Assembly: GCA_045544395.1 (NCBI GenBank)
Contig: JAZPYX010000030.1
Location: forward strand, 11,386 to 43,385
Direction of reading: 5' to 3'
DNA length: 32,000 nt
DNA from: Clostridia bacterium
GTDB lineage: Bacteria; Bacillota; Clostridia; UMGS1883
Shown: positions 2,573 through 30,846 of the stretch, one piece after another
Numbering within the stretch: the first letter of the stretch is position 1
Layout: every line of letters starts with the position of its first letter
Translations under genes and position numbers: made by a program
Notes under the pieces: generated by a model
The model's input: only the letters and a program-made list of their open reading frames with translations
Told to the model about the DNA's origin: nothing
The model's database searches: none

Positions 2573-2607
2573 AATAAACTCCATTCTGTCGCTTAAAGTG
2601 CGACTGC

Positions 2608-3645
2608 TTATTTATCAGAAAGTGATTCTATAATTTTGGGTGTAAATTTTAAAAACAGTATAAGACCGAGAATTACGGCAACAAATACCCACCAGGATAC
2701 TGCACCCGTAGCAATAAGGACAATTGCACCGAGGCAGAGAACTATGCATAAAAGATATATTATAAGAACAGCTTGCTTTTGTGAAAATCCTGCATCAACA
2801 AGCCTGTGATGAAGATGCCCTCTGTCAGGGGACATAATAGGCTGATGGTTTTTCACTCTTCTGAGAATAGCAGAAAGTGTATCAAAAATAGGCAGTCCCA
2901 GGATAAGTATTGGAGTCGCTATGCTTATGATGGCATAGCCTTTAAAAAGTCCCTGTACAGAAATCGTACTAAGGATAAAGCCCAAGAACAGTGCACCTGT
3001 ATCGCCCATAAAAAGCTTTGCCGGATTGAAGTTATAAGGTAAAAATCCGAAGCAGGCACCTGCCAGTGCACTTGTTATGAAAGCAACTTCTCCTTCGCCA
3101 ACGATAATGGCAATGACAAGAAGCGTCAGTGCTGAAATAGAGGATACACCACAAGCAAGTCCGTCAAGACCGTCCAGAAGGTTAACTGCGTTTGTTATAC
3201 CCACAATCCAAAGAACCGTAAGGGGAATAGCAAACCAACCAAGACCAATGTATCCGTATTCAGAGAGGATTGAAGGAACTTTTATAAACTCAATCCTTAC
3301 ACCTGCAAGAACAGGACACAGTGCGGCAACAATCTGAAAAACTAACTTCAATTTAGCACTGAGGGCATAGATATCGTCAAATACGCCAAGAATTACAATA
3401 ATGCTGCAACCAATAAGCATTCCGATTATTTCCCTGTTAAGGTCAGCAAAAATGATGGCACTTATTACAAAACCCAAAAAGATTGCAAGACCGCCGAGAC
3501 GGGCAGTTGGTTTTTTGTGCATGCGGCGATTGTCCTTGGGAACATCCACTGCACCGATTTTGAATGCAAGATTTTTTACAAAGGGGGTAGTGATAAATGT
3601 GACTATGAATGCCACAATAAAGGCGACTAATAAACTCTTATGCAT
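2608..3645 (-). CDS. tagO: MraY/WecA-family polyprenyl-phosphate HexNAc-1-phosphate transferase (TagO-like)
   Basis: 345-aa protein with about 10-11 TM helices. Motifs GVFDDIYALS, NAVNLLDGLDGLA, FMGDTGALFLGF and HLHHRL. GAGGTA RBS. Only 23 nt from each neighbouring gene. Confidence 0.8.
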   Translation of the reverse strand: MHKSLLVAFIVAFIVTFITTPFVKNLAFKIGAVDVPKDNRRMHKKPTARLGGLAIFLGFVISAIIFADLNREIIGMLIGCSIIVILGVFDDIYALSAKLKLVFQIVAALCPVLAGVRIEFIKVPSILSEYGYIGLGWFAIPLTVLWIVGITNAVNLLDGLDGLACGVSSISALTLLVIAIIVGEGEVAFITSALAGACFGFLPYNFNPAKLFMGDTGALFLGFILSTISVQGLFKGYAIISIATPILILGLPIFDTLSAILRRVKNHQPIMSPDRGHLHHRLVDAGFSQKQAVLIIYLLCIVLCLGAIVLIATGAVSWWVFVAVILGLILFLKFTPKIIESLSDK

Positions 3646-8393: not shown

Positions 8394-9521
8394 ATGGCGG
8401 AAAATGAGAGGATTTGGCTTTCCTGTCCCACAATGCACGGGGAAGAGCAGGTGTTTGTGAAAGAGGCATTTGATACTAACTGGGTAGCACCTCTTGGTAA
8501 AAATGTCAATGAATTCGAAAAAGAGATAGCTTCTTTTGTTGGTGTGAAGGAAGCGGCTGCAATGACTGCAGGCACTCACGCACTTCATCTTGCAGTAAAA
8601 CTTGCAGGAGTTAAAGAGGGGGATATTGTTCTCTGTTCTGACCTTACATTTTCTGCAACAGTTAACCCCGTAAGCTACGAAAACGGAACTCAGGTTTTTA
8701 TCGACAGTGAACGTGACACGTGGAATATGGACCCTGCTGCTCTTAAAATTGCTCTTGAAAAGTATCAGGGCAGAGTTAAGGCGGTTATGCTTGTACATCT
8801 TTACGGTACACCGTCGAAGATTGATGAAATAAAAGCACTTTGTGACGAGTACAGAGTGACGCTTATTGAGGATGCTGCAGAATCTCTCTCAGCTACATAT
8901 AAGGGCAAGCAGACAGGCTCTTTTGGTAAATACGGTGCAATCAGCTTTAACGGAAATAAGATTATAACGACATCAGGCGGCGGAATGTTCCTGTCAGACG
9001 ATGTGGAGGCAGTTAAAAAGGTGAGATTCTTCTCAACTCAGGCGCGTGAGCCTTTCCCGTATTATCAGCACGAAGAAATCGGTTATAACTACCGTATGAG
9101 TAATGTTGTGGCAGGTATTGGCAGAGGTCAGATTCTCCACCTTGAAGAACACAGAAAACTGAAAGAGGATATATATTTCCGTTATAAGGAGGGGTTAAAA
9201 GACCTTCCCGTAACAATGAATCCTTACGAGGATTGTGCAGTACCTAACTTCTGGCTTAGTTGTATGCTTCTTTCGGAAGATGCAATGAAAATCACAGAGC
9301 CCGAAAAAATCCGTATTGCACTTGAAGAGGAAAATATCGAGTCAAGACCTATATGGAAGCCTATGCATATGCAGCCTGTGTACAAGGAAAATGATTTTAT
9401 CACTGCAGGTGACAATGTGGGTGAGGACATTTTCCGCAGAGGGTTATGTTTGCCAAGTGATATAAAAATGACAAAAAGTCAGCAACAGAAAGTAATTGAT
9501 TTAATCAAGGAGTTATTCTGA
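8394..9521 (+). CDS. DegT/EpsN/PglE-family PLP-dependent aminotransferase (nucleotide-4-keto-6-deoxy-HexNAc 4-aminotransferase type)
   Basis: Near-colinear resemblance to B. subtilis EpsN as I recall it: TNWVAPLG, FIDSE.DTWNM, IEDAAESL, SFNGNKIITTSGGGM (PLP lysine), STQAREP, YQH.EIGYNYR.SN, E.RP.WKP.H.QP and GLCLPS. Confidence 0.85.
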   Translation: MAENERIWLSCPTMHGEEQVFVKEAFDTNWVAPLGKNVNEFEKEIASFVGVKEAAAMTAGTHALHLAVKLAGVKEGDIVLCSDLTFSATVNPVSYENGTQVFIDSERDTWNMDPAALKIALEKYQGRVKAVMLVHLYGTPSKIDEIKALCDEYRVTLIEDAAESLSATYKGKQTGSFGKYGAISFNGNKIITTSGGGMFLSDDVEAVKKVRFFSTQAREPFPYYQHEEIGYNYRMSNVVAGIGRGQILHLEEHRKLKEDIYFRYKEGLKDLPVTMNPYEDCAVPNFWLSCMLLSEDAMKITEPEKIRIALEEENIESRPIWKPMHMQPVYKENDFITAGDNVGEDIFRRGLCLPSDIKMTKSQQQKVIDLIKELF

Positions 9522-10207
9522 TGTATGAAAAGTTTTTAAAACGTGCTTTTGATATAATTTGCGCGTTGTTAGCTATAATTGTATTTTCCTGGCTGTTTTT
9601 GATTGTGGCATTGCTTGTGAGGATAAAACACGGCAGTCCTGTTATTTTTAAACAAGCACGCCCGGGACTTAACGGAAAGATTTTTTATCTTTATAAATTC
9701 AGAACAATGACTAATGAATGTGATGAAAGCGGAAACCTTCTTCCGGATAATGTTCGTCTGACAAAGTTTGGAAAGCTTCTCAGAAAAACAAGCCTTGACG
9801 AGCTTCCCGAAGCATTCAATATTCTGAAAGGTGATATGTCTGTTGTAGGGCCGAGACCGCAACTTGTTCGGGATATGGTTTTTTTTAGTGAGGAACAGAT
9901 GAAACGGCAAAGTGTACTCCCGGGACTTACCGGTCTTGCACAGATCAGTGGCAGAAACGGAATCACATGGGAAGAAAAGATAGCGTTTGACCTTGAATAC
10001 ATAAAAAAAATAACGTTTATAGGTGATGTCAGAATAATTTTTCTTACAGTGTGGCGTGCATTTGTCAAGCAAGATGGTGTTTCACAGGAAGGTATGGATA
10101 CCGCTGAAGATATGGGGGATTATTTACTTCGATGCGGAAAAGTAAGCCAAGAAGAATATGATGAAAAACATAAGAAAAGCAAGGAATTGATTGAGGGAAT
10201 ACGATGA
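9521..10207 (+). CDS. small monotopic phosphoglycosyl transferase (PglC/EpsL/WcfS-like priming sugar transferase)
   Basis: 228 aa. A single N-terminal re-entrant helix, then KQARPG, YKFRTM and SLDELPEAFNILKGDMSVVGPRP (catalytic Asp-Glu dyad region). Its start overlaps the aminotransferase stop (TGATG). Confidence 0.85.
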   Translation: MYEKFLKRAFDIICALLAIIVFSWLFLIVALLVRIKHGSPVIFKQARPGLNGKIFYLYKFRTMTNECDESGNLLPDNVRLTKFGKLLRKTSLDELPEAFNILKGDMSVVGPRPQLVRDMVFFSEEQMKRQSVLPGLTGLAQISGRNGITWEEKIAFDLEYIKKITFIGDVRIIFLTVWRAFVKQDGVSQEGMDTAEDMGDYLLRCGKVSQEEYDEKHKKSKELIEGIR

Positions 10208-10713
10208 AAGTAGTAAAATGGCTTTATGAAAAAATCACGAAAAGAGAAGCACCGTATTATTACAATTACAGTGTTTTAAAAATTGTAGCCAAGCCGATAA
10301 GAAAATACTTTACCAATGTAGTGGCAGCAAACTGTCCGTTTAATTGTATTCGTATCCTCATTTACAGAATGTGCGGATTCAAAATAGGGAAAAAAACTTT
10401 TATAGGGATGCGTTGCTATTTAGATGATTTGTGCTATGACAAGCTTGAAATAGGTAGCAACTGTATTATTTCATACGGCGTGTTTTTTGCTTGCCATGGA
10501 AGAAATCAGGGACATGTCCCGATTGTTATAAAAGACGGTGTATATATAGGGATGCGGGCAAGTGTGATCTCAAAAGGAACCGATGAAAATGGTATTATTG
10601 TAGGCGAAAATGCTGTAATAGGAGCTTGCACATTAGTAAATAAGAATATACCAAAAGGGGTAACTGCGGTTGGAATTCCCTGTAGAATTATTGAGGAGAG
10701 TGAAGAGCAGTGA
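10204..10713 (+). CDS. hexapeptide-repeat acetyltransferase (LacA/WbbJ-like)
   Basis: 169 aa. Left-handed beta-helix repeats (IGSNCIISYGV...IKDGVYIGMRASV...VGENAVIGACTLV) and a GIPCRII tail. ATGA overlap with the previous gene. Confidence 0.7.
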   Translation: MKVVKWLYEKITKREAPYYYNYSVLKIVAKPIRKYFTNVVAANCPFNCIRILIYRMCGFKIGKKTFIGMRCYLDDLCYDKLEIGSNCIISYGVFFACHGRNQGHVPIVIKDGVYIGMRASVISKGTDENGIIVGENAVIGACTLVNKNIPKGVTAVGIPCRIIEESEEQ

Positions 10714-11474
10714 AAGATTTGGTTTCAGTTATAATGCCATCTTATAATACAGCGGAATTTATAAAAGAGACAATAGAATCTGTCCTTCATCAGACGTATC
10801 AGAATTTTGAAATTATAATTGTGGACGATTGTTCTACTGATAATACGGATGAAGTAGTTTCATCAATTAAAGATGAAAGAATCAAATATTTAAAAAACGA
10901 AAAAAATAGTGGGGCGGCGATTTCTCGAAATCGCGCACTCCGAGAAGCAAAAGGCGAATGGATAGCTTTTCTGGACAGTGATGATGTATGGCTTCCGGAA
11001 AAACTTGAAAAACAGATTTCTTTTATGAAAAAGAACGGGTATAAGTTTTCTTACACCGCTTATGAAGAAATGAATGAGAACTCGTTAGAGACAGGTGTCT
11101 GGGTTTCAGGTCCCGGTAAAATAACAAAAGCCGGTATGTATAATTATTGTTGGCCGGGATGTCTTACAGTTATGTACAGTGCTGAAAATATCGGCCTTGT
11201 TCAAATTGAGGATATCAAGAAAAATAATGATTATGCAATGTGGTTGAAAGCGATAAAAAAAGAAAACTGTTATTTGCTTAATGAAAAGCTTGCGAAATAT
11301 CGTATTCGAAGCGGTTCCATATCAAGACACAGCAAGCTTAAACTTATAAAGCACCATTATTTGCTTTATAAAATAGGCGAAAAAAGAAATTGTGTTTCAA
11401 GTATTGTATTGACGATTCGTAATCTGTTTTTTGGAGTTGTCAAGAAGTTAGTATATGTAAAAAAAGAGTGTTAA
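10710..11474 (+). CDS. family 2 glycosyltransferase
   Basis: VSVIMPSYNTAEFI, IIIVDDCSTDNT and FLDSDD (DxD), which is the GT-A signature. GTGA overlap with the previous stop. Confidence 0.85.
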   Translation: MKDLVSVIMPSYNTAEFIKETIESVLHQTYQNFEIIIVDDCSTDNTDEVVSSIKDERIKYLKNEKNSGAAISRNRALREAKGEWIAFLDSDDVWLPEKLEKQISFMKKNGYKFSYTAYEEMNENSLETGVWVSGPGKITKAGMYNYCWPGCLTVMYSAENIGLVQIEDIKKNNDYAMWLKAIKKENCYLLNEKLAKYRIRSGSISRHSKLKLIKHHYLLYKIGEKRNCVSSIVLTIRNLFFGVVKKLVYVKKEC

Positions 11475-11477
11475 CAT

Positions 11478-12521
11478 ATGAAAAAGATTGCAGTTATCGG
11501 ACATTTTGGATTTGGAAAAAACTTACTTAACGGACAAACAATAAAGACGAAAGTGTTTACAGAAGCACTTAAAGAGTATGTCGGACAGGAGAATATAACT
11601 TGTGTAGATACCCATGGAGGACTCAAAACTCTTATAAAAATTGTTGCAAAAATCAACTCTGTATTAAAAAAAAATGATGATATAATTATGCTTCCGGCTC
11701 ATAACGGAGTGTTGGTGTTTACTCCGTTGTTAAGCTTCTTTAACTGCTTTTTAAAAAGAAAACTTCACTATGTTGTTATTGGCGGATGGTTGCCTGAATA
11801 CCTTGATAAACATAAAATTACAGGCAAACTCCTTAAAAAGAAATTTGCGGGAATCTATGTAGAGACATCCGTTATGAAAAATGATTTGAACAATCGTAAT
11901 TTCAGTAACGTGCATATACTTCCGAATTACAAAAATATTGACCCTGTACGGGAAACTGAACTGTTAATGGTTGATGCGTATCCGATAAAGGCTTGCACTT
12001 TTTCCAGAGTGATGCCTCAAAAGGGGATAATAGATGCAGTGAGGGCAGTGACTGAAATTAATAAAGAGGCAAACAAAACGATTATAACTCTTGATGTATA
12101 TGGTGCAGTAGACGATCAATTCAGAAATGAATTTGAAACAATTTTAGAAAATGCTCCGGACTACGTTTGTTATAAGGGGATGGTAGATTATGATAAAACG
12201 GTGTTAACTTTAAAGGAGTATGATCTGCAGTTGTTTCCTACCAAATTTAAAACAGAAGGAATCCCCGGTTCTGTCGTAGAGAGCTTTTTCGCAGGCGTTC
12301 CGGTAGTTTCTGCGAAGTGGAACAGTTTTGAAGATGTCTTTACGGATGAAAAAACAGGAATTGGGTTTGAAATAGGAAATTACGATGATTTCAAGAAAAA
12401 ACTTAAGGAATTAATCAGCAATTACAACTTGCTGAATGATATGAAGAAAAATTGTTTGGTAAAAGCGAATAGCTATAAGAATGAAAGTATAGAAGCATTA
12501 AAAAAATTCTTCTTTGACTAA
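11478..12521 (+). CDS. GT-B fold glycosyltransferase (GT4-like, retaining)
   Basis: 347 aa. The C-terminal block PTKFKTEGIPGSVVESFFAGVPVVS...TGIGFE matches the E-x7-E nucleotide-sugar-binding region of GT4 enzymes. Confidence 0.75.
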   Translation: MKKIAVIGHFGFGKNLLNGQTIKTKVFTEALKEYVGQENITCVDTHGGLKTLIKIVAKINSVLKKNDDIIMLPAHNGVLVFTPLLSFFNCFLKRKLHYVVIGGWLPEYLDKHKITGKLLKKKFAGIYVETSVMKNDLNNRNFSNVHILPNYKNIDPVRETELLMVDAYPIKACTFSRVMPQKGIIDAVRAVTEINKEANKTIITLDVYGAVDDQFRNEFETILENAPDYVCYKGMVDYDKTVLTLKEYDLQLFPTKFKTEGIPGSVVESFFAGVPVVSAKWNSFEDVFTDEKTGIGFEIGNYDDFKKKLKELISNYNLLNDMKKNCLVKANSYKNESIEALKKFFFD

Positions 12522-12548: not shown

Positions 12549-13487
12549 ATGAAAAAGTATATAAAAGTTTTTAAACGTTGGTTTGGTATGCTTTCCGGAA
12601 AAAGTGTTTTTCATAAAGCTCAAAGCAAGGGAACCCTAATGTGTAAAGATGCGGTAAGAGGTTATTATAGTGACTTAAGGCACAAAGTTAAGGATAATAA
12701 CGTTTTGGATCAGTCAGGAGTTCCGATAAACACTTCAAGCGAAGGAAGAGCTTTTTACTTTCCGATTGCTGTGTTTCAGTATGGCTTGGGTGCATATGAT
12801 TTATTTTTGGAAACAGGCGATGAGTCGTATAAGGACAAGTTTATGAATATTGTGAACTGGGCGTTTGAAAATCAGCAGATGAATGGTGCATGGGATGCCT
12901 TTGGCTGGTGTGATGAACAGCATCCGTTTTCTTCTATGGCGCAGTCAGAAGGAGCGTCTTTGCTGTGCAGAGCTTTTATAGAAACAAAAGATGAAAATTA
13001 TCTTAAATATGCAAAAAAAGCTCTTGATTTTATGTTAGTTTCCGTGGAAGACGGTGGAACAGCGTATTATGATGATTTGGGAAACCTTGTGTCTCTTGAA
13101 GAGTCCGGAAAAATAAAAACAGTGATGAATGGAATGATTTTTTCAGTTTGGGGTATTTTTGATTATTTGCTATGTGCTTCAGATGATAATCTGGAGCGGA
13201 GACTTACACAAGCTGTTGAAAGCTTGTCCGGGCTTTTGCCGCAATTTGACAGAGGATACTGGAGTAACTATGATTTGGAAAATCATATTGCAAGTCCTTT
13301 TTATCACACACTTCATATTGAACAACTTAAAGTTATGGAAGAACTATTCCCCGATAAAAAATTTAAAGACTACAGACAAAAATTTGAGAAGTACAGTAAT
13401 TCTAAATTGAAAAGCAAGAGGGCTTTTGTGGTTAAAGCGATTCAGAAAATGCGGAGTATTAAAAGTGATTCGGTAATAGTAGAGTGA
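12549..13487 (+). CDS. D-glucuronyl C5-epimerase C-terminal-domain family protein
   Basis: 312 aa with no signal peptide or TM helix. Blocks align with the C-terminal barrel of animal heparosan glucuronyl C5-epimerase as I recall it. SSMAQSEGASLLCRAF corresponds to SAMAQGQAISTLVRAY. NGMIFSVWGIFDY corresponds to NGFMYSLIGLYDL. LPQFDRGYWSNYDLENH corresponds to LPLYDTGSGTIYDLRH. PFYHTLHIEQL corresponds to WDYHTTHINQL. Confidence 0.7.
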   Translation: MKKYIKVFKRWFGMLSGKSVFHKAQSKGTLMCKDAVRGYYSDLRHKVKDNNVLDQSGVPINTSSEGRAFYFPIAVFQYGLGAYDLFLETGDESYKDKFMNIVNWAFENQQMNGAWDAFGWCDEQHPFSSMAQSEGASLLCRAFIETKDENYLKYAKKALDFMLVSVEDGGTAYYDDLGNLVSLEESGKIKTVMNGMIFSVWGIFDYLLCASDDNLERRLTQAVESLSGLLPQFDRGYWSNYDLENHIASPFYHTLHIEQLKVMEELFPDKKFKDYRQKFEKYSNSKLKSKRAFVVKAIQKMRSIKSDSVIVE

Positions 13488-13542: not shown

Positions 13543-14442
13543 ATGAATCGAGGTAAAGTATCAGTAATAATACCGACATACAAGGGTGACGATAATGTAG
13601 CCAGAGCGGTAGAGAGTGTTTTGAACCAGACCTACAATGATATTGAGATATTCGTGGTTGACGATAATGGAAGAGGAACAGAAAAGCAGTTGGCGACTGA
13701 AAATGCACTCAGAAGCTACATTGATGAAGGAAAGATTACATATCTTATTCATGAAAAGAATATCAACGGCTCTGCGGCAAGAAATACCGGAGCCCGTGCA
13801 TCTTCAGGAGAATTTATTTGTTTTCTTGATGATGATGATGAGTATTTGCCTAAGAACGTAGAAAATCATATAAAGCGTTTCAGAGAATTGTCGGAGGATT
13901 ACGGAATTACCCATTGTGCAATAAAGAGATTCTATGAGTATAACCGTCAGGAAATAATTTCTCCGACCCATGAAGGAGAGGCTCTTTTGGATTTTATGTG
14001 TGGAAAAGTTAAGATGGGTTCCAGTTGTATTATGGTAAGAAGAAGTGCTTATGAAAGCGTAAACGGATTTGATGAAACTTTCCGACGCCATCAGGATTGG
14101 GAATTTTCCGCAAGAATATTACGCAACTACAAAGTAGCTATGGTAAATGAAGTAGGACTTAACAAATATCAGCTTTACAGAAATAGTGCAAAAAATCCTG
14201 AGCAATATGAAAAAAACAGGTTGTACTATCTTGAAAGAATGGCGTTTATTATAGATTCTTTTGATAAAAAGGACAGAAATAAGATTTTCAATGCACATTA
14301 TCAGCAGATAGCAATAGATTATTTTAAGGCGAAAAAGTTTGGAAAGTGTATTAAATGGACGATGAAAACAACCAACCCCGTAAAGTGTTGGGGAACAATA
14401 TTTATGGATGCAATGAGATTTATAAAAAGAAAGTATATGTAA
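13543..14442 (+). CDS. family 2 glycosyltransferase
   Basis: VSVIIPTYKG, IFVVDDNGRG and FLDDDDEY (DxD). Strong GGAGG RBS. Confidence 0.85.
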   Translation: MNRGKVSVIIPTYKGDDNVARAVESVLNQTYNDIEIFVVDDNGRGTEKQLATENALRSYIDEGKITYLIHEKNINGSAARNTGARASSGEFICFLDDDDEYLPKNVENHIKRFRELSEDYGITHCAIKRFYEYNRQEIISPTHEGEALLDFMCGKVKMGSSCIMVRRSAYESVNGFDETFRRHQDWEFSARILRNYKVAMVNEVGLNKYQLYRNSAKNPEQYEKNRLYYLERMAFIIDSFDKKDRNKIFNAHYQQIAIDYFKAKKFGKCIKWTMKTTNPVKCWGTIFMDAMRFIKRKYM

Positions 14443-14465: not shown

Positions 14466-15737
14466 ATGGACAGGCAGGAGCAAAGGACAAAAAAAGAATA
14501 TTTGACATCGTTTATAGTGGCGTATGTAATAGCTATTAAAGGTATGAATCAGCTGATAGGAGCTATTTTAGGTCGGACTAACGGTATAATGATGATTAGC
14601 TTGATTTTTGTATCAGGTTTGCTTGTGTTGCATTTTTTCATATCAGACAAGAATGAAAACCTTAATTTGAATAAAAAGTCTTTGCTTTTTGTTTACTATA
14701 TCGTAAGTGTAATTGTTGTGTATAAGTATGCGTATAAATACGGAAGTGCTTCTTATGAAGAACTCTTTGTTTTTGTGTTGATTCCGATTTATCTTTCTTT
14801 TTATAAAATTGATGTTGAACAAGTTCTTAAATATCTTACTTTTTTATCTGTTCTGATATTACCTTTTTCAGGGATGTTTTTCAAGAGTACAGCAACAATA
14901 GCTTTTGAAACTATCGGCATGACGGCAAGTTACAATACACTTATTTTTGTGGTTGCTGCTGCACTTCACTTTTGGTACTACAGAAAAAATGCGGGATTTT
15001 TGATGTGGGTAGGATATTTGGCAAATATTTATTATTTGATAAAGATTTTAACTTTGGGAAACCGTGGTGTGTTTGTTTCAATTGCTGTCTTTTTGGTACT
15101 TTTACTTCTTCATGATACTGATAAAAACGGAAAAATAAATAAAAATAATTACAAAAAAGTATTGATTACCCTTGTTGTGGGAATTTTGGTTATATATGTT
15201 GTTAATAATTTTGAAGAAATATTAGGCGCGATAGATAAGTGGTTAAAGTCTATGGGAATGGAAATCAGTGCTATTTCCAAAAATGTACATAAGCTGGAAC
15301 AAGGCGATATTACCAACGGACGGCAAATTATTACGGAATTTACGAAAAAAGGAATAAAAGAAAAAATGCTTTTGGGTAACGGTATATCAACGATGTTGCA
15401 CAATAGCGGTTATACAATGGCATATCCGCATAATATTTTCTTGCAACTATGGTATGATTTGGGAATATTTGTATCTATACCGTTGTTTTGTTTGATTGCT
15501 AAAGCTACAATAAAAACTTTCTTTGATTCTTCTATTAGTAAAGAATATTCAGTTTTGCTGATTTTTTTGTATACTTTATCTATTCCAAGGTTATGTGTTT
15601 CATCACAATTGTGGGTAGATATATCGTTTTGGTTTTTGATGATGTATACAATTACTCCAAATCTCTACGAGAAGCATAATTACGGTGTATCGGACGACTT
15701 TGAAGAAAAGGAGCACTTGCGCGATGAAAGAAACTGA
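14466..15737 (+). CDS. wzy: repeat-unit polymerase (Wzy; O-antigen ligase/polymerase-like family)
   Basis: 423 aa with about 10-12 TM helices and a large loop in the C-terminal half. Contains the LGNRGVFVSIAVF segment typical of Wzy_C-type proteins. Low sequence complexity and AT-rich codons are usual for wzy. Confidence 0.7.
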   Translation: MDRQEQRTKKEYLTSFIVAYVIAIKGMNQLIGAILGRTNGIMMISLIFVSGLLVLHFFISDKNENLNLNKKSLLFVYYIVSVIVVYKYAYKYGSASYEELFVFVLIPIYLSFYKIDVEQVLKYLTFLSVLILPFSGMFFKSTATIAFETIGMTASYNTLIFVVAAALHFWYYRKNAGFLMWVGYLANIYYLIKILTLGNRGVFVSIAVFLVLLLLHDTDKNGKINKNNYKKVLITLVVGILVIYVVNNFEEILGAIDKWLKSMGMEISAISKNVHKLEQGDITNGRQIITEFTKKGIKEKMLLGNGISTMLHNSGYTMAYPHNIFLQLWYDLGIFVSIPLFCLIAKATIKTFFDSSISKEYSVLLIFLYTLSIPRLCVSSQLWVDISFWFLMMYTITPNLYEKHNYGVSDDFEEKEHLRDERN

Positions 15738-16817: not shown

Positions 16818-18266
16818 ATGGATAGTAAAAAGGTTTTAACAAATTTAATATGGCGTTTCCTGGAAAGAAGCGGTGCGCAGATAGTAAGCTTTGTTGTGTC
16901 AATCATTCTCGCGAGACTTTTATGCCCTGAAGATTATGGGGTTATTGCTCTTGTAACTGTTTTTATCACGGTGTTACAGACTTTTGTGGACAGCGGTTTC
17001 GGTAATGCGCTGATTCAGAAAAAAGATGCAGACGATGTGGATTTTTCGTCGGTATTTTATTTTAATATAACTTCCTGTGCAGTGCTGTATCTTATAATGT
17101 TTTTTGCGGCACCGTATATTGCAAAATTTTATAAAATTCCTCAACTTACAGCTATTGTTCGTGTTATAAGTCTTAAACTTGTTATTTCCGGACTTAAAAA
17201 TGTGCAGCAGGCATATGTATCAAAGCAGATGATGTTTAAAAAGTTTTTCTTTGCAACGCTTATAGGCACTGTAGGGGCGGCAATAGTTGGTATTGCAATG
17301 GCATATTGTGGATTTGGAGTATGGGCACTTGTAGCACAGCAGCTTTTTAACTTGTTTGTAGATACTGCTATTTTATGGTTTGTAGTTAAGTGGAGACCCA
17401 AGAGAGTATTTTCTTTTAAACGGCTTAAGGGACTTCTTTCTTATGGATGGAAATTACTTGCTGTATCACTTATGAATAATCTGTATAATGAATGCCGCCA
17501 GCTTGTAATCGGTAAGGTGTATACCCCTGCGTCTCTTGCAATTTACAATAAAGGCAGACAATTCCCTGATTTGTTTGTAAATAATATAAACACTTCGATA
17601 GACAGCGTGCTTCTTCCTGCATTGTCCCGTGAGCAAGATAATGCAAGCAATGTTAAAGCAATGACAAGACGTGCAATAAGAATCAGTAGCTTCATTATGG
17701 CTCCGTTTATGGTTGGACTTGCTTTAGTGGCAAAACCGCTTATATTGCTGCTTCTGACAGAAAAATGGGTAGAATGCGTGCCGTTTATGGTTGTTTTTTG
17801 TGTTTCGTTTTTGTTCAAACCTATTAATACGGCAAACCTTAACGCAATAAAGGCTATGGGAAGAAGTGATTTGTTTCTAAAAATAGATATCCTGAAAATT
17901 ATAGTTGGTATTATAACACTTGTCATTGCACTTCCTTACGGAACGTTTGCAATTGCAATAGGATTTCTTGCTGCTACAATTATAGGAATGATTATAAATG
18001 TCTTTCCTAATAAGAGTATGCTTGGTTACGGTTATATTGAACAGATTAAGGATTTACTTAATCCGATTATCCCGATTGCGGTAATGGTTATTACAACTTA
18101 TGCGGTAGGCCTTTTAAAACTTTCTCCGCTTCCGATGCTTTGTATACAAGTAACTGTGGGAATAGTTTCTTACATATCAACTTCGGCACTTACTAAAAAT
18201 GAATCTTTCCGCTATGCTTTGAATATGATGAAAAATCTTTTTAAAAAAAGAGGTAAACAAAAATGA
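16818..18266 (+). CDS. wzx: Wzx flippase (MOP/PST-family polysaccharide transporter)
   Basis: 482 aa with about 14 TM helices. The N-terminal NLIWRFLERSGAQIVSFVVSIILARLL...YGV and GFGNALIQ blocks are typical of PST-family flippases. Confidence 0.85.
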   Translation: MDSKKVLTNLIWRFLERSGAQIVSFVVSIILARLLCPEDYGVIALVTVFITVLQTFVDSGFGNALIQKKDADDVDFSSVFYFNITSCAVLYLIMFFAAPYIAKFYKIPQLTAIVRVISLKLVISGLKNVQQAYVSKQMMFKKFFFATLIGTVGAAIVGIAMAYCGFGVWALVAQQLFNLFVDTAILWFVVKWRPKRVFSFKRLKGLLSYGWKLLAVSLMNNLYNECRQLVIGKVYTPASLAIYNKGRQFPDLFVNNINTSIDSVLLPALSREQDNASNVKAMTRRAIRISSFIMAPFMVGLALVAKPLILLLLTEKWVECVPFMVVFCVSFLFKPINTANLNAIKAMGRSDLFLKIDILKIIVGIITLVIALPYGTFAIAIGFLAATIIGMIINVFPNKSMLGYGYIEQIKDLLNPIIPIAVMVITTYAVGLLKLSPLPMLCIQVTVGIVSYISTSALTKNESFRYALNMMKNLFKKRGKQK

Positions 18267-19462
18267 AAAAACTTATGATTCTGGGCGGCGCAAGATATAT
18301 ACTTCCAGTAATTGAAAAAGCAAAAAGAATGGGAATATACGTAATAACTTGTGACTATTTGCCTGATAATGTGGCACATAAATATTCCGATGAATATATA
18401 AATATAAGTATTGTTGATAAGGATGTTGTGCTTGACGGTGCGAAAAAAGCGAATATTGACGGTATTATGTCTTTCGCTTGTGACCCCGGAGTGGCGACTG
18501 CTGCCTATGTTGCTGAAAAAATGGGACTTCCCTTTGCAGGAAGTTATGAGGCAGTTTCAATACTTCAAAACAAAGACAAATTCCGTGCATTCCTTGAAAA
18601 GAATGGTTTTACAGTGCCTGCGTCAGGCGGTTACAGAACGCTTGAAGAGGCTCTCGGTGACCTTGATAAATTTACTTTCCCTGTGATTGTAAAACCTGTT
18701 GATTCTGCGGGAAGTAAGGGTGTAAGTCGTGTTGTCGATAAAAAAGATTTGGCTCCTTCCGTGGAATTTGCCCTTAAATATTCAATTGACGGCAGGTTTA
18801 TTATAGAGGACTTTATTGAAAAGAAAGGATTTTCGTCAGATTCAGACAGCTTTACTGTTGACGGAAAGTTCAGTTTTCTTTCATTTTCAGACCAAAGATT
18901 TGACGAAAATGCATCAAACCCCTATACGCCTGCAGCGTATAGCTGGCCTCCTACTATGGAGGAAGGCGCACAGAAAGAACTTGCTGATGAGCTTCAGCGT
19001 CTTGCTAAATTGCTTGACCTCAAAACTTCAGTATATAATATAGAAACCCGAGTAGGTACAAACGGCAAACCATATATAATGGAAGTTTCTCCCCGCGGTG
19101 GCGGAAACAGACTTTCGGAAATGTTATATCACGTAACAGACGTTGACCTTATAGAAAATGCAGTGCGTGCAGCAGTAGGTGAGCCTTTGGTGGATATGTG
19201 TCAGAAACCATATAATGGGTATCTTGCAGAAATCATTCTCCATAGTGAAAAAGAAGGTATTTTTAAAGAATTGTGGATCAACGAAGAAATAAAGGAAAAT
19301 GTTCTGGAAGAAGATTTGTGGGTGAAAGACGGTGACGGTGTCAGCGGATTTTCAGGCGCAAATGAAGCAATAGGTACGCTTGTTCTTAAGTTCGACAATC
19401 GTGAAATGATGGAAAAAGTACTTAAAAATCAGGATAATTATGTTAAAGTAGTTTTGAAATAA
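18263..19462 (+). CDS. ATP-grasp domain ligase, substrate unknown
   Basis: 399 aa. A pre-ATP-grasp Rossmann-like N-terminus (KKLMILGG) is followed by FPVIVKPVDSAGSKGV (phosphate loop), IIEDFIE and IMEVSPRGGGN (Mg-ATP site). ATGA-type overlap with wzx. Confidence 0.75.
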   Translation: MKKLMILGGARYILPVIEKAKRMGIYVITCDYLPDNVAHKYSDEYINISIVDKDVVLDGAKKANIDGIMSFACDPGVATAAYVAEKMGLPFAGSYEAVSILQNKDKFRAFLEKNGFTVPASGGYRTLEEALGDLDKFTFPVIVKPVDSAGSKGVSRVVDKKDLAPSVEFALKYSIDGRFIIEDFIEKKGFSSDSDSFTVDGKFSFLSFSDQRFDENASNPYTPAAYSWPPTMEEGAQKELADELQRLAKLLDLKTSVYNIETRVGTNGKPYIMEVSPRGGGNRLSEMLYHVTDVDLIENAVRAAVGEPLVDMCQKPYNGYLAEIILHSEKEGIFKELWINEEIKENVLEEDLWVKDGDGVSGFSGANEAIGTLVLKFDNREMMEKVLKNQDNYVKVVLK

Positions 19463-19472
19463 AGGTGAAATT

Positions 19473-20417
19473 ATGTGGGAAATCGGCGGATATATTGAAC
19501 TTGATACATACAATCTTCCAATGCTTCATGGAGAAGCGGTACTTCTTAACTCGGGAAGAAATGCTCTTGCCTATCTTATAAGAGCCAAGAAAATTGAAAA
19601 GATATATATTCCGAAATTTCTTTGTGATTCTGTAAGAAATGTATGTAAAAGAGAAAACATTAAAATAGAATACTATTCTGTTGGAATAAATTTTCTTCCC
19701 AAAGATTTACCCGAAACTATTGACGGATGGCTTTATATCGTAAATTATTACGGACAGATTAGTAATAACAAAATAAGAGAAATTGTTGTTAAATATAAAA
19801 ATGTTATTGTGGACAATGCACAAAGCTATTTTCAGATGCCGGTAGAAGGTGTTGATACCTTATACACCTGCCGTAAATTTTTTGGTGTGGCAGACGGTGC
19901 AATACTGTATACTGATAGATACATCGAATGCCTTGAAACAGATGAATCATTTTCAAGAATGAATTTTCTGCTTGGCAGATTTGAACGCACCGCATCTGAG
20001 TTTTATTCGGAATATGTAGCAAATAATGACTTTTTTGAAAATGAAGAAGTTAAGAAAATGTCAAAGCTGACGTATAATCTTTTACATGGTATTGACTATG
20101 AAAAAGTAAAAAAGCAGCGAACAGAAAACTTTTTAGTTTTACATAATGCTTTGAAAAATATAAATAAACTTTCACCAACTGTTCCCGACGGTGCATTTAT
20201 GTATCCGTTATATGTAGAAAATGGTGCAAAAATAAGAAAAGAACTTCAAAAGGAAAAAATTTATATTCCTACATTATGGGCAGATACGTTTGATGTTTGT
20301 GAAAAAGATGATATTCAGTGTGATATGGCAGAAAATATATTGCCACTTCCCTGTGACCAAAGATATGAAGATGCAGATATGTATCGAATTGTAGATTACA
20401 TTAAAAAGTATTTATAA
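19473..20417 (+). CDS. short, divergent DegT/DnrJ/EryC1-like (fold-type I PLP) protein, function unknown
   Basis: 314 aa. NSGRNALAYLIRA...IYIPKFLCDSV, VDNAQSYF (in place of DAAQA) and TCRKFFGVADGAILYT (in place of SFxxxKxxxxGEGG, with the lysine retained) follow the DegT order. The protein is about 50-60 aa shorter than canonical members. Confidence 0.45.
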   Translation: MWEIGGYIELDTYNLPMLHGEAVLLNSGRNALAYLIRAKKIEKIYIPKFLCDSVRNVCKRENIKIEYYSVGINFLPKDLPETIDGWLYIVNYYGQISNNKIREIVVKYKNVIVDNAQSYFQMPVEGVDTLYTCRKFFGVADGAILYTDRYIECLETDESFSRMNFLLGRFERTASEFYSEYVANNDFFENEEVKKMSKLTYNLLHGIDYEKVKKQRTENFLVLHNALKNINKLSPTVPDGAFMYPLYVENGAKIRKELQKEKIYIPTLWADTFDVCEKDDIQCDMAENILPLPCDQRYEDADMYRIVDYIKKYL

Positions 20418-20431
20418 CTAGGAGGAAGAAA

Positions 20432-21733
20432 ATGTATAATCTTGAAGGTAAAAAATTGATGGTTATGGACAGAACGGCTCTTGCGGCTTGTGCAGTAAAA
20501 AGAGCGAAAGAGCTTGGTGTAAAAACTATTGTAGCAAACTTTTATCCCACAGAAGAGTCTCCGTCTAAGCAGATTGCTGATGAAACTGTTGATATTGACA
20601 TTTCAAAAACAGATGAAATGCTCGCCCTTATTAAAGAAAGAGGCGTAGACGGAATTTTTGTGGGATGGACAGATTCGCACCTTCCTTTTTATGCAGACAT
20701 ATGTGAAAAGGCAGGTCTTCCTTGTTGTGGAACAAAAGAACAGTTTGACATTCTTTCCAATGATAAACGCAGATTCAAGGAAGTTGGCTTGAAATATGGT
20801 GTTCCCACCATTCCCGAATATAAGCTGGACATTAACTTAAAAAGGGAAGATCTTGATAAGATTGAATATCCCGTACTTGTAAAGCCTGCTGACGAAAGTG
20901 GTAGCCGCGGAATCAAGCGTTGTGATAATGAAGAAGATTTGGTTGAATATTACAAGGCTTTGTACGAACATTCCAAGAGTAAGAAAATTTTATGTGAAAA
21001 ATATATGGGAGATTGTAAAGAAATTTTCCTCCACTATACAATTCAGGACGGATATTGCAGCTTGTCCTCAACCTTTATGAAACAGAAAGCTGTTACAGAA
21101 GGTTCCGTAGCTTCTTCAGCGATTCTGCACGTATTCCCAACATCTTATGTTGACTTGTACAGAAAAACAACCGAGCCTGCAGTAATTAAACTTATAGAAG
21201 GTCTGGGTATTAAGAACGGCATTGTTATGTTTCAGGGGTTTATAGATGGCGACAAATTCTGCTTCTTTGAATCAGGACTCAGAATGGGTGGTGAGCAGTT
21301 CTATGTATTTGCTGCCCCCTTGAACGGTATCAACGCTTTAGATATGATGATTGAATTTTCATTAACGGGCAAGATGACTTGCGGTGATGCAAAAACTCAA
21401 GACAATCCCAATTTCTCAAAAAGCTGTGTAAACTATTATATCACATTAAAACCCGGAACAATTACAAAGATTAAAGGACTTGAAGAAGTTGAAGCAATGC
21501 CCCAGGTTCTGCAGAATGCAACCTTCCATAAAATAGGCGATACTATTCAAAAAACAAATGCATTGGACCGAGTTATTTATCGTCTGCATGTAATGGATGA
21601 TACAAAAGAAAAATTGGCAGAAACACTTTGTAAAATCAGTCATACATTGCAGGTGCTTGATGAAAACGGTAACGATATGCAGATTGAGTGTCTGACTTAT
21701 GAGAGAGCGTACGAGATGCTTGCAAATTCTTAA
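20432..21733 (+). CDS. ATP-grasp domain ligase, substrate unknown (paralogous architecture to 18263-19462)
   Basis: 433 aa. KKLMVMD N-terminus, YPVLVKPADESGSRGI phosphate loop, LCEKYM and FFESGLRMGGE. AGGAGG RBS. Confidence 0.75.
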   Translation: MYNLEGKKLMVMDRTALAACAVKRAKELGVKTIVANFYPTEESPSKQIADETVDIDISKTDEMLALIKERGVDGIFVGWTDSHLPFYADICEKAGLPCCGTKEQFDILSNDKRRFKEVGLKYGVPTIPEYKLDINLKREDLDKIEYPVLVKPADESGSRGIKRCDNEEDLVEYYKALYEHSKSKKILCEKYMGDCKEIFLHYTIQDGYCSLSSTFMKQKAVTEGSVASSAILHVFPTSYVDLYRKTTEPAVIKLIEGLGIKNGIVMFQGFIDGDKFCFFESGLRMGGEQFYVFAAPLNGINALDMMIEFSLTGKMTCGDAKTQDNPNFSKSCVNYYITLKPGTITKIKGLEEVEAMPQVLQNATFHKIGDTIQKTNALDRVIYRLHVMDDTKEKLAETLCKISHTLQVLDENGNDMQIECLTYERAYEMLANS

Positions 21734-21802
21734 AAGTAAGGAATATGATATTGCTTAACTGTAATAAAATGTTGTAAGTATATAATAACAGAGGTGTTTT
21801 AA

Positions 21803-22720
21803 TTGACAAAAGTATTGGTTTTAATGGGCGGAATTTCAACTGAGAGAGAGGTTTCCCTTCGCAGCGGTAAAGCCGTGGCAGAGGCTCTTTTTGAAAAAGG
21901 TTACGAAGTAAAAACTCTTGATATAACGAAAGAAACTATAGGTGAAATACAGGAAATTAATCCTGATGTGGTGTTCCTTGCACTTCACGGAAAGTACGGT
22001 GAAGACGGATGTATTCAAGGTATGCTTGAATGGATGGGGTATCCCTATACAGGCCCCGGTGTTGCATCAAGTGCAATCTGTATGGATAAAATTCTTACAA
22101 AGAAGATTCTTGTTAATCACAATATTCCGACACCGAAGTTTATGGAATTTAAATCTTTTAACAGTAGCATAAAAGAAACTATTCTTAAAAACTTTTCTTT
22201 GCCGGTTGTGCTTAAGGCGTGCTGTCAGGGTTCGAGCATCGGTGTCAGCATTGTAAATAACGAACAGCAGCTTGAGAAAGAAATCGAAGATACATTAAAA
22301 TACGGAGATAAGCTCCTTGTTGAGGAATTTGTTAAAGGAATTGAACTTACCGTTCCCATTATTGGTAATGAGAGCTACCGTGCACTTCCAATAATTGAAA
22401 TTACCTCAGAAAATGAATTCTACGATTATGAGTCAAAGTACACTCAGGGTATGTGTCAGCACATTATCCCTGCAAGAATTGATGAAGCTACATATAAAGC
22501 TGTTGAAAAAGCGGCACTCGATGCCTACGGTGCAACTGAATGCCGAGGATTTTCAAGAGTTGATGTAATCATTGATGAAAACAATAATCCTTATGTTATT
22601 GAAATAAATACTATTCCCGGAATGACATCTATGAGTCTTTTCCCGGATTCTGCACGCTATGCAGGAATAGAATTCCCCGAATTATTAGACGAAATAGTAA
22701 AACTCGCTCTTAAGAAATAA
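21803..22720 (+). CDS. ddl: D-alanine--D-alanine ligase
   Basis: 305 aa. KVLVLMGGISTEREVSLRSG, ALHGKYGEDG.IQG.LE, PVVLKA...GSS.GV, FYDYESKY (omega-loop Tyr retained, so D-Ala-D-Ala type) and EINTIPGMT. TTG start with GAGGTG 6 nt upstream. The first in-frame ATG would delete the conserved N-terminal strand. Confidence 0.9.
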   Translation: MTKVLVLMGGISTEREVSLRSGKAVAEALFEKGYEVKTLDITKETIGEIQEINPDVVFLALHGKYGEDGCIQGMLEWMGYPYTGPGVASSAICMDKILTKKILVNHNIPTPKFMEFKSFNSSIKETILKNFSLPVVLKACCQGSSIGVSIVNNEQQLEKEIEDTLKYGDKLLVEEFVKGIELTVPIIGNESYRALPIIEITSENEFYDYESKYTQGMCQHIIPARIDEATYKAVEKAALDAYGATECRGFSRVDVIIDENNNPYVIEINTIPGMTSMSLFPDSARYAGIEFPELLDEIVKLALKK

Positions 22721-27472: not shown

Positions 27473-27489
27473 CAAAGGAAAATGAAATT

Positions 27490-28639: not shown

Positions 28640-29824
28640 ATGAAAATTACGGTTGCAGGAACAGGATATGTAGGACTTTCAAATGCGATTTTACTTGCGC
28701 AGAATAATGAAGTGTGGGCAGTAGATATCGTGCCCGAAAAGGTGGAAATGATAAATAACGGAGTGTCCCCTATTGTAGATAATGAAATTGAAGAGTATCT
28801 TCGTAAAAAATCACTTAACCTTACGGCTACAACAGATGCAAAAAAAGCATATAAAGATGCTGATTTTGTTATTGTGTCAACGCCTACAAACTATGATCCT
28901 AAGTTAAACTATTTTGATACGTCATCAGTTGAAAGCGTAATAGAGTTTGTAACAGAAATTAATCCTGATGCTATTATCGTTATAAAATCAACTGTACCGG
29001 TAGGCTATACCGAAAAGGTAAGAGAAAAGTATAACTGTAACAATATAATTTTTTCACCTGAATTTTTAAGAGAAGGAAAAGCTCTTTACGATAACCTTTA
29101 CCCTTCAAGAATAATCGTGGGATTTCCAAAAGAAGATAAAAGACTTGAGGAAAAGGCGCGTGTTTTCGCATCTCTTTTACAGCAGGGGGCGATTAAAGAA
29201 AATATTCCGGTGCTTTTTACTAATCCCACAGAGGCGGAGGCAGTTAAGCTTTTTGCAAATACTTATCTTGCCCTCAGGGTATCATTCTTTAACGAGCTTG
29301 ATACATACGCAGAGGTAAGAGGTCTTGATACAAAACAGATTATCGAGGGTGTAGGTCTTGACCCGAGAATTGGCTCCCACTATAACAACCCCTCTTTTGG
29401 TTATGGCGGATACTGTCTGCCAAAGGACACAAAGCAGCTTCTTGCAAACTTTAATGATGTTCCAAACAATATTATTCGTGCAATAGTTGATGCAAACAGC
29501 ACCCGTAAGGACTTTATAGCGGACAGAATTATAGAAAAAAATCCTAAAATTGTAGGAATATACCGTCTCACAATGAAAGCAAATTCCGACAATTTCCGCC
29601 AAAGCTCAATTCAGGGTGTAATGAAAAGAATCAAGGCGAAAGGTATAGAGGTTGTAGTTTATGAGCCTACTCTCAAAGAATCGCATTTCTTTAATTCAAG
29701 TGTGATTCAATCTTTGGATGAATTTAAAGAAATATCGGATGTTATTATTGCTAACAGATATAATGAAGAAATATCGGATGTTCTTGATAAAGTTTATACC
29801 CGTGACCTATATTTCCGTGATTAA
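28640..29824 (+). CDS. ugd: UDP-glucose 6-dehydrogenase
   Basis: [60 protein letters not shown] and GGYCLPKD (catalytic Cys). Near-colinear with E. coli Ugd as recalled. Confidence 0.95.
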
Positions 29825-29835
29825 AGGAGACTATT

Positions 29836-30846
29836 ATGGCAGATTTTATTAAATATACAGGCAAAGAAAAAATTTTAGTAACAGGTGCGGCAGGTTTTAT
29901 TGGCTTTCACCTTTCTAAAAGAATTCTTGAAGCAGGGGGCGAGGTAATCGGATTTGACAATCTCAACGATTACTATGACGTTAATCTTAAATATGCCCGC
30001 CTTGAAATTCTTGAAAAGTATGAAAAATTTACTTTTATCAAAGGAAACCTTGCAGACAAAGCAGCAGTAGATAGCCTTTTTGTAACTTACAAGCCCGATG
30101 TTGTTGTAAATCTTGCAGCTCAGGCGGGGGTAAGGTATTCAATTGACAATCCGGGAAGTTATATAGAGAGCAACATTGTAGGGTTTTACAACATTCTTGA
30201 AGCCTGCAGGCATTATCCTGTAGAGCACCTTTTGTATGCCTCAAGCTCATCTGTATACGGCAATCAGAAAAAGACACCTTTTTCAACAGATGACAATGTC
30301 GACCACCCCATAAGTCTTTATGCCGCAACTAAGAAGTCAAACGAGCTTATGGCATTTACGTACAGCCATCTTTATAATATTCCTGCTACGGGGCTTCGTT
30401 TCTTTACAGTGTACGGCCCCTACGGCAGACCGGATATGGCATATTTTTCATTCACACAGAAAATAATGCGTGGCGAAACCATAAAGATATTTAATAACGG
30501 TGATATGTACCGTGACTTTACTTATGTTGACGATATAGTTCAGGGAATAATGAATATGCTTCTTAATCCCCCGAAACCTGACGAAAACGGGGACCGTGCA
30601 AAAGTATATAATATCGGTAACAACAATCCCGAAAAACTTATGTATTTTATCGAAACACTTGAAAAGGCAATCGGCAAAGCAGCAGAGAAAGAGTATCTTC
30701 CTATGCAGCCCGGTGACGTATACCAGACCTATGCCGATGTAAGTGATTTACAGAGAGATTTTGACTTTAAGCCGTCTACATCTATAGAAGACGGACTTAA
30801 TAAATTTGCAAAATGGTATTTTGAATATTACGGAGAAAATAGATGA
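29836..30846 (+). CDS. UDP-glucuronate 4-epimerase (SDR family)
   Basis: ILVTGAAGFIGFH, NLAAQAGVRYS, ASSSSVYG, LYAATKKSNE (YxxxK) and RFFTVYGPYGRPDMA. These are characteristic of the UDP-GlcA 4-epimerase clade (Cap1J/LpsL-like). Confidence 0.85.
   Translation: MADFIKYTGKEKILVTGAAGFIGFHLSKRILEAGGEVIGFDNLNDYYDVNLKYARLEILEKYEKFTFIKGNLADKAAVDSLFVTYKPDVVVNLAAQAGVRYSIDNPGSYIESNIVGFYNILEACRHYPVEHLLYASSSSVYGNQKKTPFSTDDNVDHPISLYAATKKSNELMAFTYSHLYNIPATGLRFFTVYGPYGRPDMAYFSFTQKIMRGETIKIFNNGDMYRDFTYVDDIVQGIMNMLLNPPKPDENGDRAKVYNIGNNNPEKLMYFIETLEKAIGKAAEKEYLPMQPGDVYQTYADVSDLQRDFDFKPSTSIEDGLNKFAKWYFEYYGENR

Follow-up and report, generated by a model that had tools for sequence, protein, structure and literature searches.

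The stretch analysed here (hereafter the window) comprises 32,000 nucleotides of contig JAZPYX010000030.1 from a Clostridia bacterium, and our subject is a gene within it (12549-13487) that encodes a homologue of the animal D-glucuronyl C5-epimerase, GlcE. The open reading frame (ORF) has an ATG start with a GAGGA Shine-Dalgarno sequence 7 nt upstream, and it is part of an operon of 22 co-directional genes (8394-30846). The operon begins with a DegT aminotransferase, a small phosphoglycosyl transferase (PGT), a hexapeptide acetyltransferase, a TuaG-like glycosyltransferase (GT) of family GT2, a GT4, the epimerase homologue and a second GT2. It continues with Wzy, a WecF-like GT56, Wzx, two ATP-grasp ligases, a 314-aa protein and a Ddl-type ligase, and ends with a second DegT, RmlA, RmlB, a PglD-like acetyltransferase, an NTP_transf_5 protein, a GalK-like GHMP kinase, Ugd and a short-chain dehydrogenase/reductase (SDR) epimerase (Table 1). 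Since the operon encodes Wzx, Wzy and a PGT, and we saw neither an ABC transporter nor a synthase in it, we regard this as a Wzx/Wzy locus. The epimerase homologue is flanked on both sides by glycosyltransferase genes, as an earlier note written from the sequence alone had described.

That note had claimed that the protein aligns block by block with the catalytic barrel of the animal enzyme, and profile, sequence and fold comparisons agree on this. The Pfam model PF06662 (C5-epim_C) matches residues 127-280 (profile positions 26-187 of 188) with E=1e-33 and 116.9 bits, far above its gathering cut-off of 23.3. When PDB sequences were searched with phmmer, the only strong matches were zebrafish GlcE (4pw2, E=1.6e-18) and human GlcE (6hzz, 5.6e-17). 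All four blocks quoted in the note align as stated: SSMAQSEGAS with SAMAQGQAIS, NGMIFSVWGIFDY with NGFMYSLIGLYDL, YDLENH with YDLRHF, and FYHTLHIEQL with DYHTTHINQL. The alignment falls into two pieces, residues 36-85, which match the animal segment upstream of the beta-sandwich, and residues 97-284, which match the C-terminal domain; the animal beta-sandwich is skipped between them. This arrangement suggests that the window protein retains the whole alpha-barrel (approximately residues 36-285) and that, compared with it, the animal enzyme carries the beta-sandwich as an insertion. An AlphaFold2 model from 42 homologues was nearly all helical, with a predicted local distance difference test score (pLDDT) of 92.5 and a predicted template modelling score of 0.91. 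The top eight Foldseek matches to this model in the PDB were GlcE chains (4pw2, 4pxq, 6i01, 6i02 and 6hzz; E 7e-10 to 2e-9), with a root-mean-square deviation of ~3.0 Å over ~210 columns.

The N-terminal parts of the animal protein are missing, again in line with the note: neither the GlcE alignment nor the model has a counterpart of the stem/anchor, the beta-hairpin dimerisation domain or the beta-sandwich, and the 312-aa protein consists of the barrel only. Pfam detected neither a nucleotide-binding domain nor a beta-helix in it, no NCBIfam model matched it, and an Rfam scan of the window gave no match. Mannuronan C5-epimerases (AlgG/AlgE) have a right-handed beta-helix fold; this identity was ruled out because the model is an all-alpha barrel and there is no beta-helix match. 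Other alpha-barrels (AGE epimerases, GH88 and GH76) matched the model at 1e-4 or weaker. An identity with the AGE-like archaeal epimerase Agl32 was likewise ruled out, as GlcE folds match at ~1e-9 versus 1e-4 for AGE and the GlcE residues are present.

Outside the barrel, residues 1-35 (window 12549-12650) and 286-312 (window 13400-13487) are not matched by anything in the animal segments that were aligned. The N-terminal stretch is conserved at W11, M14, G17, S19, H22, Q25 and G28, and the bacteria-specific C-terminal helix contains invariant K296, Q299 and K300. These elements may possibly contact the membrane or the pyrophosphate, or close the cleft. Within the first stretch, a helix at residues 2-15 is basic and amphipathic (hydrophobic moment 0.66-0.69), with a pLDDT below that of the core, and could hold the epimerase at the membrane.

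PMC13308652 gives the catalytic residues of GlcE as E499, Y500, N510, Y560 and Y578 (human numbering). We mapped them by aligning human and zebrafish GlcE segments jointly with the bacterial family. In this family-bridged alignment E185, N194, Y241, Y252 and H256, which are invariant in 42 of 42 diverse homologues, correspond to E499, N510, Y560, Y578 and H582, respectively. Tyr500 falls in a two-residue deletion, and the next residue after the Glu is S186 (segment EES); the note's caveat that the Tyr of the animal EEY segment is replaced was therefore correct. Two relatives that retain EEY with the animal spacing (P0060 and P0108; P and L numbers denote proteins and loci of our collection) anchor the alignment. 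A raw HMMER pairwise alignment had shifted the query EE two residues off the animal EE and was rejected in favour of the family-bridged one. We surveyed 200 family members for the position after the invariant Glu, as well as for length and export signals. The residue is Tyr in 96 of them, 23 with the animal spacing, and otherwise S, F, A, D, C or others. With Tyr in just 96 of 200 members, Tyr500 is not a defining trait of the bacterial family. One review describes a mechanism with Tyr578 as the base and Glu499 as the proton donor and nothing more (PMC12834895). On this account, loss of Tyr500 is not clearly disabling.

The protein has many relatives. A word-indexed protein search recovered 430 homologues, nearly all of 290-320 aa and single-domain, and the few with a name are annotated as 'D-glucuronyl C5-epimerase family protein' or the like. 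An exhaustive profile search over 1.84 billion representatives yielded 5,138 clusters at E<=1e-3 and 851 at E<=1e-30, the ~5,100 clusters being defined at 50% identity. Most of its top 150 matches are 290-330 aa long, and the median among the 200 surveyed relatives is 306 aa. In data with one genome per species, 238 stretches carried an epimerase relative, from Clostridia, Negativicutes, Bacilli, Prevotellaceae including Segatella copri, Bifidobacterium saguini and Saccharibacteria. The closest protein relative is 98% identical (P0001, an ENA sequence); the best match in the one-genome-per-species data, at 75% identity, lies in an Oscillospiraceae metagenome-assembled genome (L001) and has the same gene order. 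Looking up the identical protein in the assembly collection gave no match.

We compared gene context in 80 related loci, and the surface-polysaccharide neighbourhood of the epimerase holds in these as well. The GT4 homologue directly adjoins the epimerase in 47 of the 80, and among the 75 loci whose upstream sequence is long enough to tell, it lies immediately upstream in 40. A PGT is present in 58 of the 80 loci and a TuaG-like GT2 in 51. The PGT-GT2-GT4-epimerase cassette recurs in Clostridia, Bacilli and Saccharibacteria, and its order is reversed in Bacteroidota. The ugd gene is found at variable distances from the epimerase, and Sporomusa-type loci have the epimerase directly beside a sugar-nucleotide dehydrogenase. 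The link to glycosyltransferases extends to natural fusions (Table 1): the epimerase domain is joined to GT4 in either order, to GT2, and to the C-terminus of a Wzx-type flippase. Tandem epimerase domains also occur, in proteins of up to 1150 aa. Most fusions turned up in several sequences or contigs (P0210 and P0213 are each a single sequence), and the Wzx-epimerase fusion was confirmed at the DNA level, where it lies in a glycan locus.

Which residue occupies the Tyr500 position goes together with the kind of sugar dehydrogenase that the locus encodes. For this comparison we used 43 full-flank loci, those with at least 8 kb on both sides of the epimerase gene. A PRK15057-type Ugd occurs in 12 of 19 loci of the non-Tyr class, to which the window protein belongs, versus 0 of 17 for the class with Tyr at the 9-residue spacing, Tyr(-9) (Fisher p=4.5e-5, kinship ignored). 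In the Tyr(-9) class, 7 of the 17 loci have dehydrogenases most like UDP-ManNAc or UDP-GlcNAc dehydrogenases (UDP, uridine diphosphate). All seven loci of the Tyr(-11) class, which has the 11-residue spacing and the EEY segment, contain a Ugd of either type. In total, a Ugd of either type was found in 19 of the 43 loci (12 non-Tyr and 7 Tyr(-11)) and a Gla homologue, scored at 40% identity or more, in 4. Because subclasses pair with UDP-ManNAc- or UDP-GlcNAc-dehydrogenase-like genes instead of Ugd, the bacterial PF06662 family probably spans several uronic acids. Together, the gene pair, the fusions and the residue classes support a cytoplasmic enzyme tied to repeat-unit assembly.

No signal peptide or transmembrane (TM) helix was found in the window protein, as the note had stated: its Kyte-Doolittle maximum over 19 residues is 1.47, at a buried barrel helix (192-210), as against 2.4-3.1 for Wzy, Wzx and PGT from the same operon. 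Bar a handful, the 200 surveyed family members also lack both. Glycosyltransferase domains use cytoplasmic nucleotide sugars. Given the fusions to such domains and the lack of an export signal, we conclude that the epimerase works in the cytoplasm. In the Wzx fusion, the linker after the last TM helix has 11 K/R in 40 residues. By the positive-inside rule, K/R-rich loops are cytoplasmic, which places the epimerase domain of this fusion in the cytoplasm too. The location proposed in the note thus gains support from the clade-wide absence of export signals and from the GT4, GT2 and Wzx fusions. We also agree with its argument that a Wzx/Wzy pathway restricts the substrate to a lipid-linked repeat unit or a nucleotide sugar.

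Table 1. Genes of the window (nucleotide positions) and epimerase-domain fusions in relatives (protein handles)
Feature	Location	Strand	Basis
PF06662 uronyl C5-epimerase homologue, stand-alone, 312 aa	12549..13487	+	Pfam, PDB phmmer, AlphaFold2/Foldseek, invariant residues
Small PGT, primes polyprenyl-phosphate carrier	9521..10207	+	Bac_transf E=1e-60; one strong TM segment
TuaG-like GT2	10710..11474	+	Glycos_transf_2 E=8e-43; NCBIfam TuaG E=5e-73, below equivalog cut-off
GT4-type glycosyltransferase	11478..12521	+	Glycos_transf_1 E=4e-16
GT2 directly downstream of epimerase	13543..14442	+	Glycos_transf_2 E=3e-28
Wzy-type repeat-unit polymerase, polytopic	14466..15737	+	Wzy_C 34.2 bits, cut-off 31.7
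Wzx-type flippase	16818..18266	+	Polysacc_synt_3 E=1e-103
UDP-glucose 6-dehydrogenase Ugd, source of UDP-glucuronic acid	28640..29824	+	PRK15057 E=1.4e-191; TIGR03026 above cut-off; UDPG_MGDP_dh
SDR epimerase, probably UDP-glucuronic acid 4-epimerase (UDP-galacturonic acid supply)	29836..30846	+	Pfam Epimerase E=9e-60
Fusion epimerase-GT4	P0124		
Fusion GT4-epimerase	P0202, P0210, P0213		
Fusion GT2-epimerase	P0263		
Fusion Wzx-type flippase with epimerase at C-terminus	P0195 (L081 10001-12244)		
Tandem epimerase domains	P0180, P0189		

The other genes of the operon bear on which sugars are available. The note had placed ugd and a UDP-glucuronic acid (UDP-GlcA) 4-epimerase in it. The former is well supported by its match to PRK15057. 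For the latter, no curated NCBIfam model naming the last SDR gene was reached, and we call it a probable UDP-GlcA 4-epimerase on the basis of its PDB relatives (5u4q, E=4e-118; second-best, the Bacillus cereus UDP-GlcA 4-epimerase 6zl6, E=9e-53). The GT4, for which we found no informative solved relative, would add the uronic acid that is epimerised or would use the epimerised donor, and the GT2 directly downstream of the epimerase is a candidate for the step after epimerisation. We find the 'glycosaminoglycan-like' product suggested in the note unsupported: a priming PGT and four further glycosyltransferases, together with dTDP-aminosugar and ATP-grasp (amino-acid) ligase genes, fit a complex hetero-repeat better than a disaccharide glycosaminoglycan.

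Several further features were seen in the window. Of the two ATP-grasp ligases in the ligase block (18263-22720), one has an L-amino-acid-ligase C-terminal domain; the block also contains a full D-Ala-D-Ala-ligase-type gene and is kept in L001 at 73-97% identity. It suggests that a sugar bears amino acids or a dipeptide, joined through an aminosugar or a uronic acid carboxyl. The 314-aa protein (19473-20417) has no Pfam or NCBIfam match. Directly upstream of ugd and the SDR epimerase, at 26252-28623, lie the NTP_transf_5 protein and the GalK-like GHMP kinase. Kinases 57-62% identical to the latter recur with an RmlA-like nucleotidyltransferase in L033, L038, L039, L043, L052 and L075, four of which also have a Gla homologue, a hint that a nucleotide sugar may also be made through a kinase and a pyrophosphorylase, beside the dehydrogenase route. 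The listed GT56 ORF has a GTG start and overlaps the end of wzy by 53 nt (15685-15737); as its matches begin at residue 93 (Pfam) and residue 19 (longest NCBIfam), its true start may be further downstream. On the minus strand, at 1433-3645, a UDP-GlcNAc 2-epimerase and a Glycos_transf_4 (PF00953, MraY/WecA-type) polyprenyl-phosphate sugar-phosphate transferase probably serve a separate wall glycan. At 30990-32000 (+) an apparent ABC-type ATPase, judged by its translation, runs off the window end.

We propose that the epimerase acts together with the GT4 on D-glucuronic acid (GlcA) within an oligosaccharide linked to undecaprenyl pyrophosphate (Und-PP), giving L-iduronic acid (IdoA), and we put the probability of this at about even. 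Ugd would supply UDP-GlcA, and the PGT, the TuaG-like GT2 and the upstream GT4 would build the repeat unit on Und-PP at the inner membrane face. The epimerase, with the GT4, would then strip the C5 proton from the lipid-linked GlcA and return a proton from the opposite face, with Y252 (human Y578) and E185 (E499) as the predicted catalytic pair and N194 and Y241 as helpers. The next transferase and Wzx would carry the unit forward and so pull an otherwise unfavourable equilibrium. What the data show directly is the family membership, the fold, the conservation of catalytic residues, the lack of export signals, the gene pair and the fusions; from these we infer the activity itself, the choice of GlcA and action at the lipid-linked level. 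Since the non-Tyr subclass tracks Ugd and not Gla, GlcA is the likeliest sugar. The lipid-linked unit is favoured because all assayed family members act on chain-embedded GlcA (the animal and Bermanella marisrubri enzymes; PMC13308652), because the glycan-binding barrel has no nucleotide-binding domain, because the gene is tied to a specific transferase and not to ugd, and because one lineage has fused the epimerase to the flippase for finished units.

A number of observations weigh against this proposal. No sugar dehydrogenase was seen within 10 kb of the epimerase in 17 of the 43 full-flank loci. The assayed PF06662 enzymes all lie outside the short stand-alone clade. By comparison with animal GlcE, a repeat unit of about five sugars falls below the minimum of six or more given for that enzyme (PMC13308652). 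The Tyr500 equivalent is deleted and sources differ on the second proton carrier, Tyr500 or Glu499 (PMC13308652 and PMC12834895), and the chemistry may differ. The residue-class statistics ignore kinship, the ugd counts cover epimerase-bearing polysaccharide loci only, and the idea of a membrane-holding helix rests on sequence only. Finally, the fusions to glycosyltransferases would suit donor channelling, with UDP-IdoA made for the fused transferase, equally well.

This last point leads to a different substrate level, at which the protein would turn cytoplasmic UDP-D-GlcA into UDP-L-IdoA and the neighbouring GT4 would transfer IdoA directly. A review of E. coli O antigens puts forward such a route, with a C5-epimerase named Gae, calls it 'the only likely pathway' and describes it as 'not based on experimental data' (PMC7685785). 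A soluble, cytoplasmic epimerase, the channelling that GT4 and GT2 fusions would allow, and the Sporomusa-type gene order all suit it, and the authors of the Agl32 study could not exclude UDP-GlcA as a substrate of that enzyme. We nevertheless consider it rather unlikely. Every assayed PF06662 enzyme uses chain-embedded GlcA, the barrel is of a glycan-binding type in which Pfam detects no nucleotide-binding domain, and the gene is embedded among transferases with ugd at a variable distance. A fusion to Wzx, which handles Und-PP-linked units, would be hard to explain, and we found no paper on a UDP-GlcA 5-epimerase of the PF06662 family in the literature searched. The sugar could also be another one, with C5 epimerisation of D-galacturonic acid to L-altruronic acid or of an amidated or acylated uronic acid. 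The probable UDP-GlcA 4-epimerase and the ATP-grasp ligases, which could modify uronic acids, would fit such a substrate, as would the pairing of other subclasses with UDP-ManNAc- or UDP-GlcNAc-dehydrogenase-like genes. The epimerase tracks the supply of GlcA and not of GalA, however (a Gla homologue in 4 full-flank loci versus Ugd in 19), and the sole family member with a known glycan, that of E. coli O112ab, goes with L-IdoA; we judge this possibility distinctly unlikely.

It is very unlikely, in our view, that the protein is not an epimerase at all and that, after the loss of Tyr500, it serves as a glycan-trimming lyase or hydrolase or as a non-catalytic partner of the GT4. The deletion of Tyr500, the variability of the position after the invariant Glu and a second tier of fold matches made up of GH88, GH76 and AGE enzymes would accord with this. 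A scaffold would not be expected to keep four of five catalytic residues and H256 invariant, though, the Tyr578/Glu499 account requires no Tyr500 (PMC12834895), a degradative enzyme would have no obvious substrate in the cytoplasm of a biosynthetic operon, and the non-Tyr subclass is the very one linked to Ugd. We consider it extremely unlikely that the protein acts on the polymer outside the membrane after unconventional export, in the manner of alginate epimerases or Golgi GlcE. Long chains are indeed substrates of animal GlcE and of the Bermanella enzyme (PMC13308652), and a 2011 survey predicted signal peptides in many prokaryotic homologues (PMC3068255). Against this stand the absence of a signal peptide or TM helix in the protein, with few exceptions in its clade, and the natural fusions to cytoplasmic GT domains and to the positively charged cytoplasmic end of Wzx.

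Taken by itself, the gene in the window is an expected annotation, and the value lies in the leads that come with it: the fusions, the gene pair and the subclass rule. The clade may comprise the first GlcE-family enzymes to act on Und-PP-linked repeat units in the cytoplasm, physically coupled to a GT4 and in some cases to Wzx, working with a Glu/Tyr pair without Tyr500, and divided into subclasses for GlcA, ManNAcA and GlcNAcA; we hold this view tentatively, as somewhat less than evenly probable. The fusions and the conserved cassette make the substrate level of a large clade directly testable. L-iduronic acid is regarded as rare in bacteria. The distribution of the gene points against rarity, with hundreds of species, many of them gut commensals, carrying a conserved GT4-epimerase module. 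If the view is right, L-IdoA and other L-uronic acids would be common in the capsules of commensals (gut Clostridia, Prevotellaceae and others). If short lipid-linked units are the substrate, an epimerase type known in animals for long polymers would be seen working inside a Wzx/Wzy assembly line, small soluble catalysts for IdoA-containing oligosaccharides would be at hand, and host-mimicking sugars would be predicted on commensal surfaces.

The closest known systems are the stand-alone bacterial members of the family. The note had called either substrate context undescribed for the family, which overstates the case, as short PF06662 proteins were catalogued in O-antigen and capsule clusters, among their sugar-modifying genes, in the 2011 survey (Raedts et al.; PMC3068255). 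The window protein is a further member of this group and its context is not new: it has 312 aa and a single PF06662 domain, compared with ~300-325 aa in the group, and is encoded among PGT, GT2, GT4, GT2, Wzy, GT56, Wzx, RmlAB and Ugd. We found no paper in the literature searched that combines a PF06662 epimerase with Wzy. The survey lists proteins from Ruminococcus sp. 18P13 (302 aa), Thermoanaerobacter tengcongensis (312 aa), Bacillus cereus R309803 (307 aa) and Bacteroides sp. 1_1_6 (305 aa) (PMC3068255). These four cluster together, share the size, build and kind of neighbourhood of the window protein, and come from taxa that overlap those of the relatives found here, and we infer that the window protein belongs to this ~300-aa clade. 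Also in the survey are 323-aa candidate C5-epimerases from E. coli O112ab and Shigella boydii type 15, which have L-IdoA in their O antigen (PMC3068255). O112ab is absent from a list of ABC-transporter-dependent O antigens (PMC7685785) and would thus use the Wzx/Wzy pathway. Its protein is, like ours, a short stand-alone PF06662 protein in a surface-polysaccharide cluster; it differs in coming from Gammaproteobacteria, in being distantly related and in serving a different repeat unit, and the review assumes UDP-GlcA as its substrate.

The sole assayed bacterial PF06662 enzyme, that of Bermanella marisrubri RED65, acted on O-desulfated heparin, converting GlcA to IdoA (PMC13308652). It belongs to the same family, but it has 448 aa, resembles the human enzyme far more closely (2e-76 in the table of the 2011 survey; PMC3068255) and was assayed on a long polymer. 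Animal GlcE (4pw2, 6hzz) has a homologous barrel and shares E499, N510, Y560, Y578 and H582 as well as the MAQ, NG, YDL and YHxxH motifs. It is, however, a dimeric protein of the Golgi lumen with a beta-hairpin and a beta-sandwich, it has Tyr500, and it needs at least six sugars and N-sulfated neighbours (PMC13308652), whereas the window protein is a cytoplasmic bare barrel without Tyr500 and with extra conserved N- and C-terminal helices. The nearest parallel to the proposed mechanism comes from Halobacterium salinarum, where Agl32, a non-homologous archaeal enzyme, epimerises a lipid-linked tetrasaccharide in the cytoplasm (PMC12624080, PMC13308652). What the two share is that GlcA becomes IdoA while the short lipid-linked oligosaccharide still faces the cytoplasm, ahead of its flipping; the differences are an AGE-like predicted fold, the absence of the GlcE catalytic residues and the lack of any BLAST relation to GlcE. 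By analogy, Agl32 shows that a lipid-linked mechanism of the kind we propose has a natural example, in an unrelated fold.

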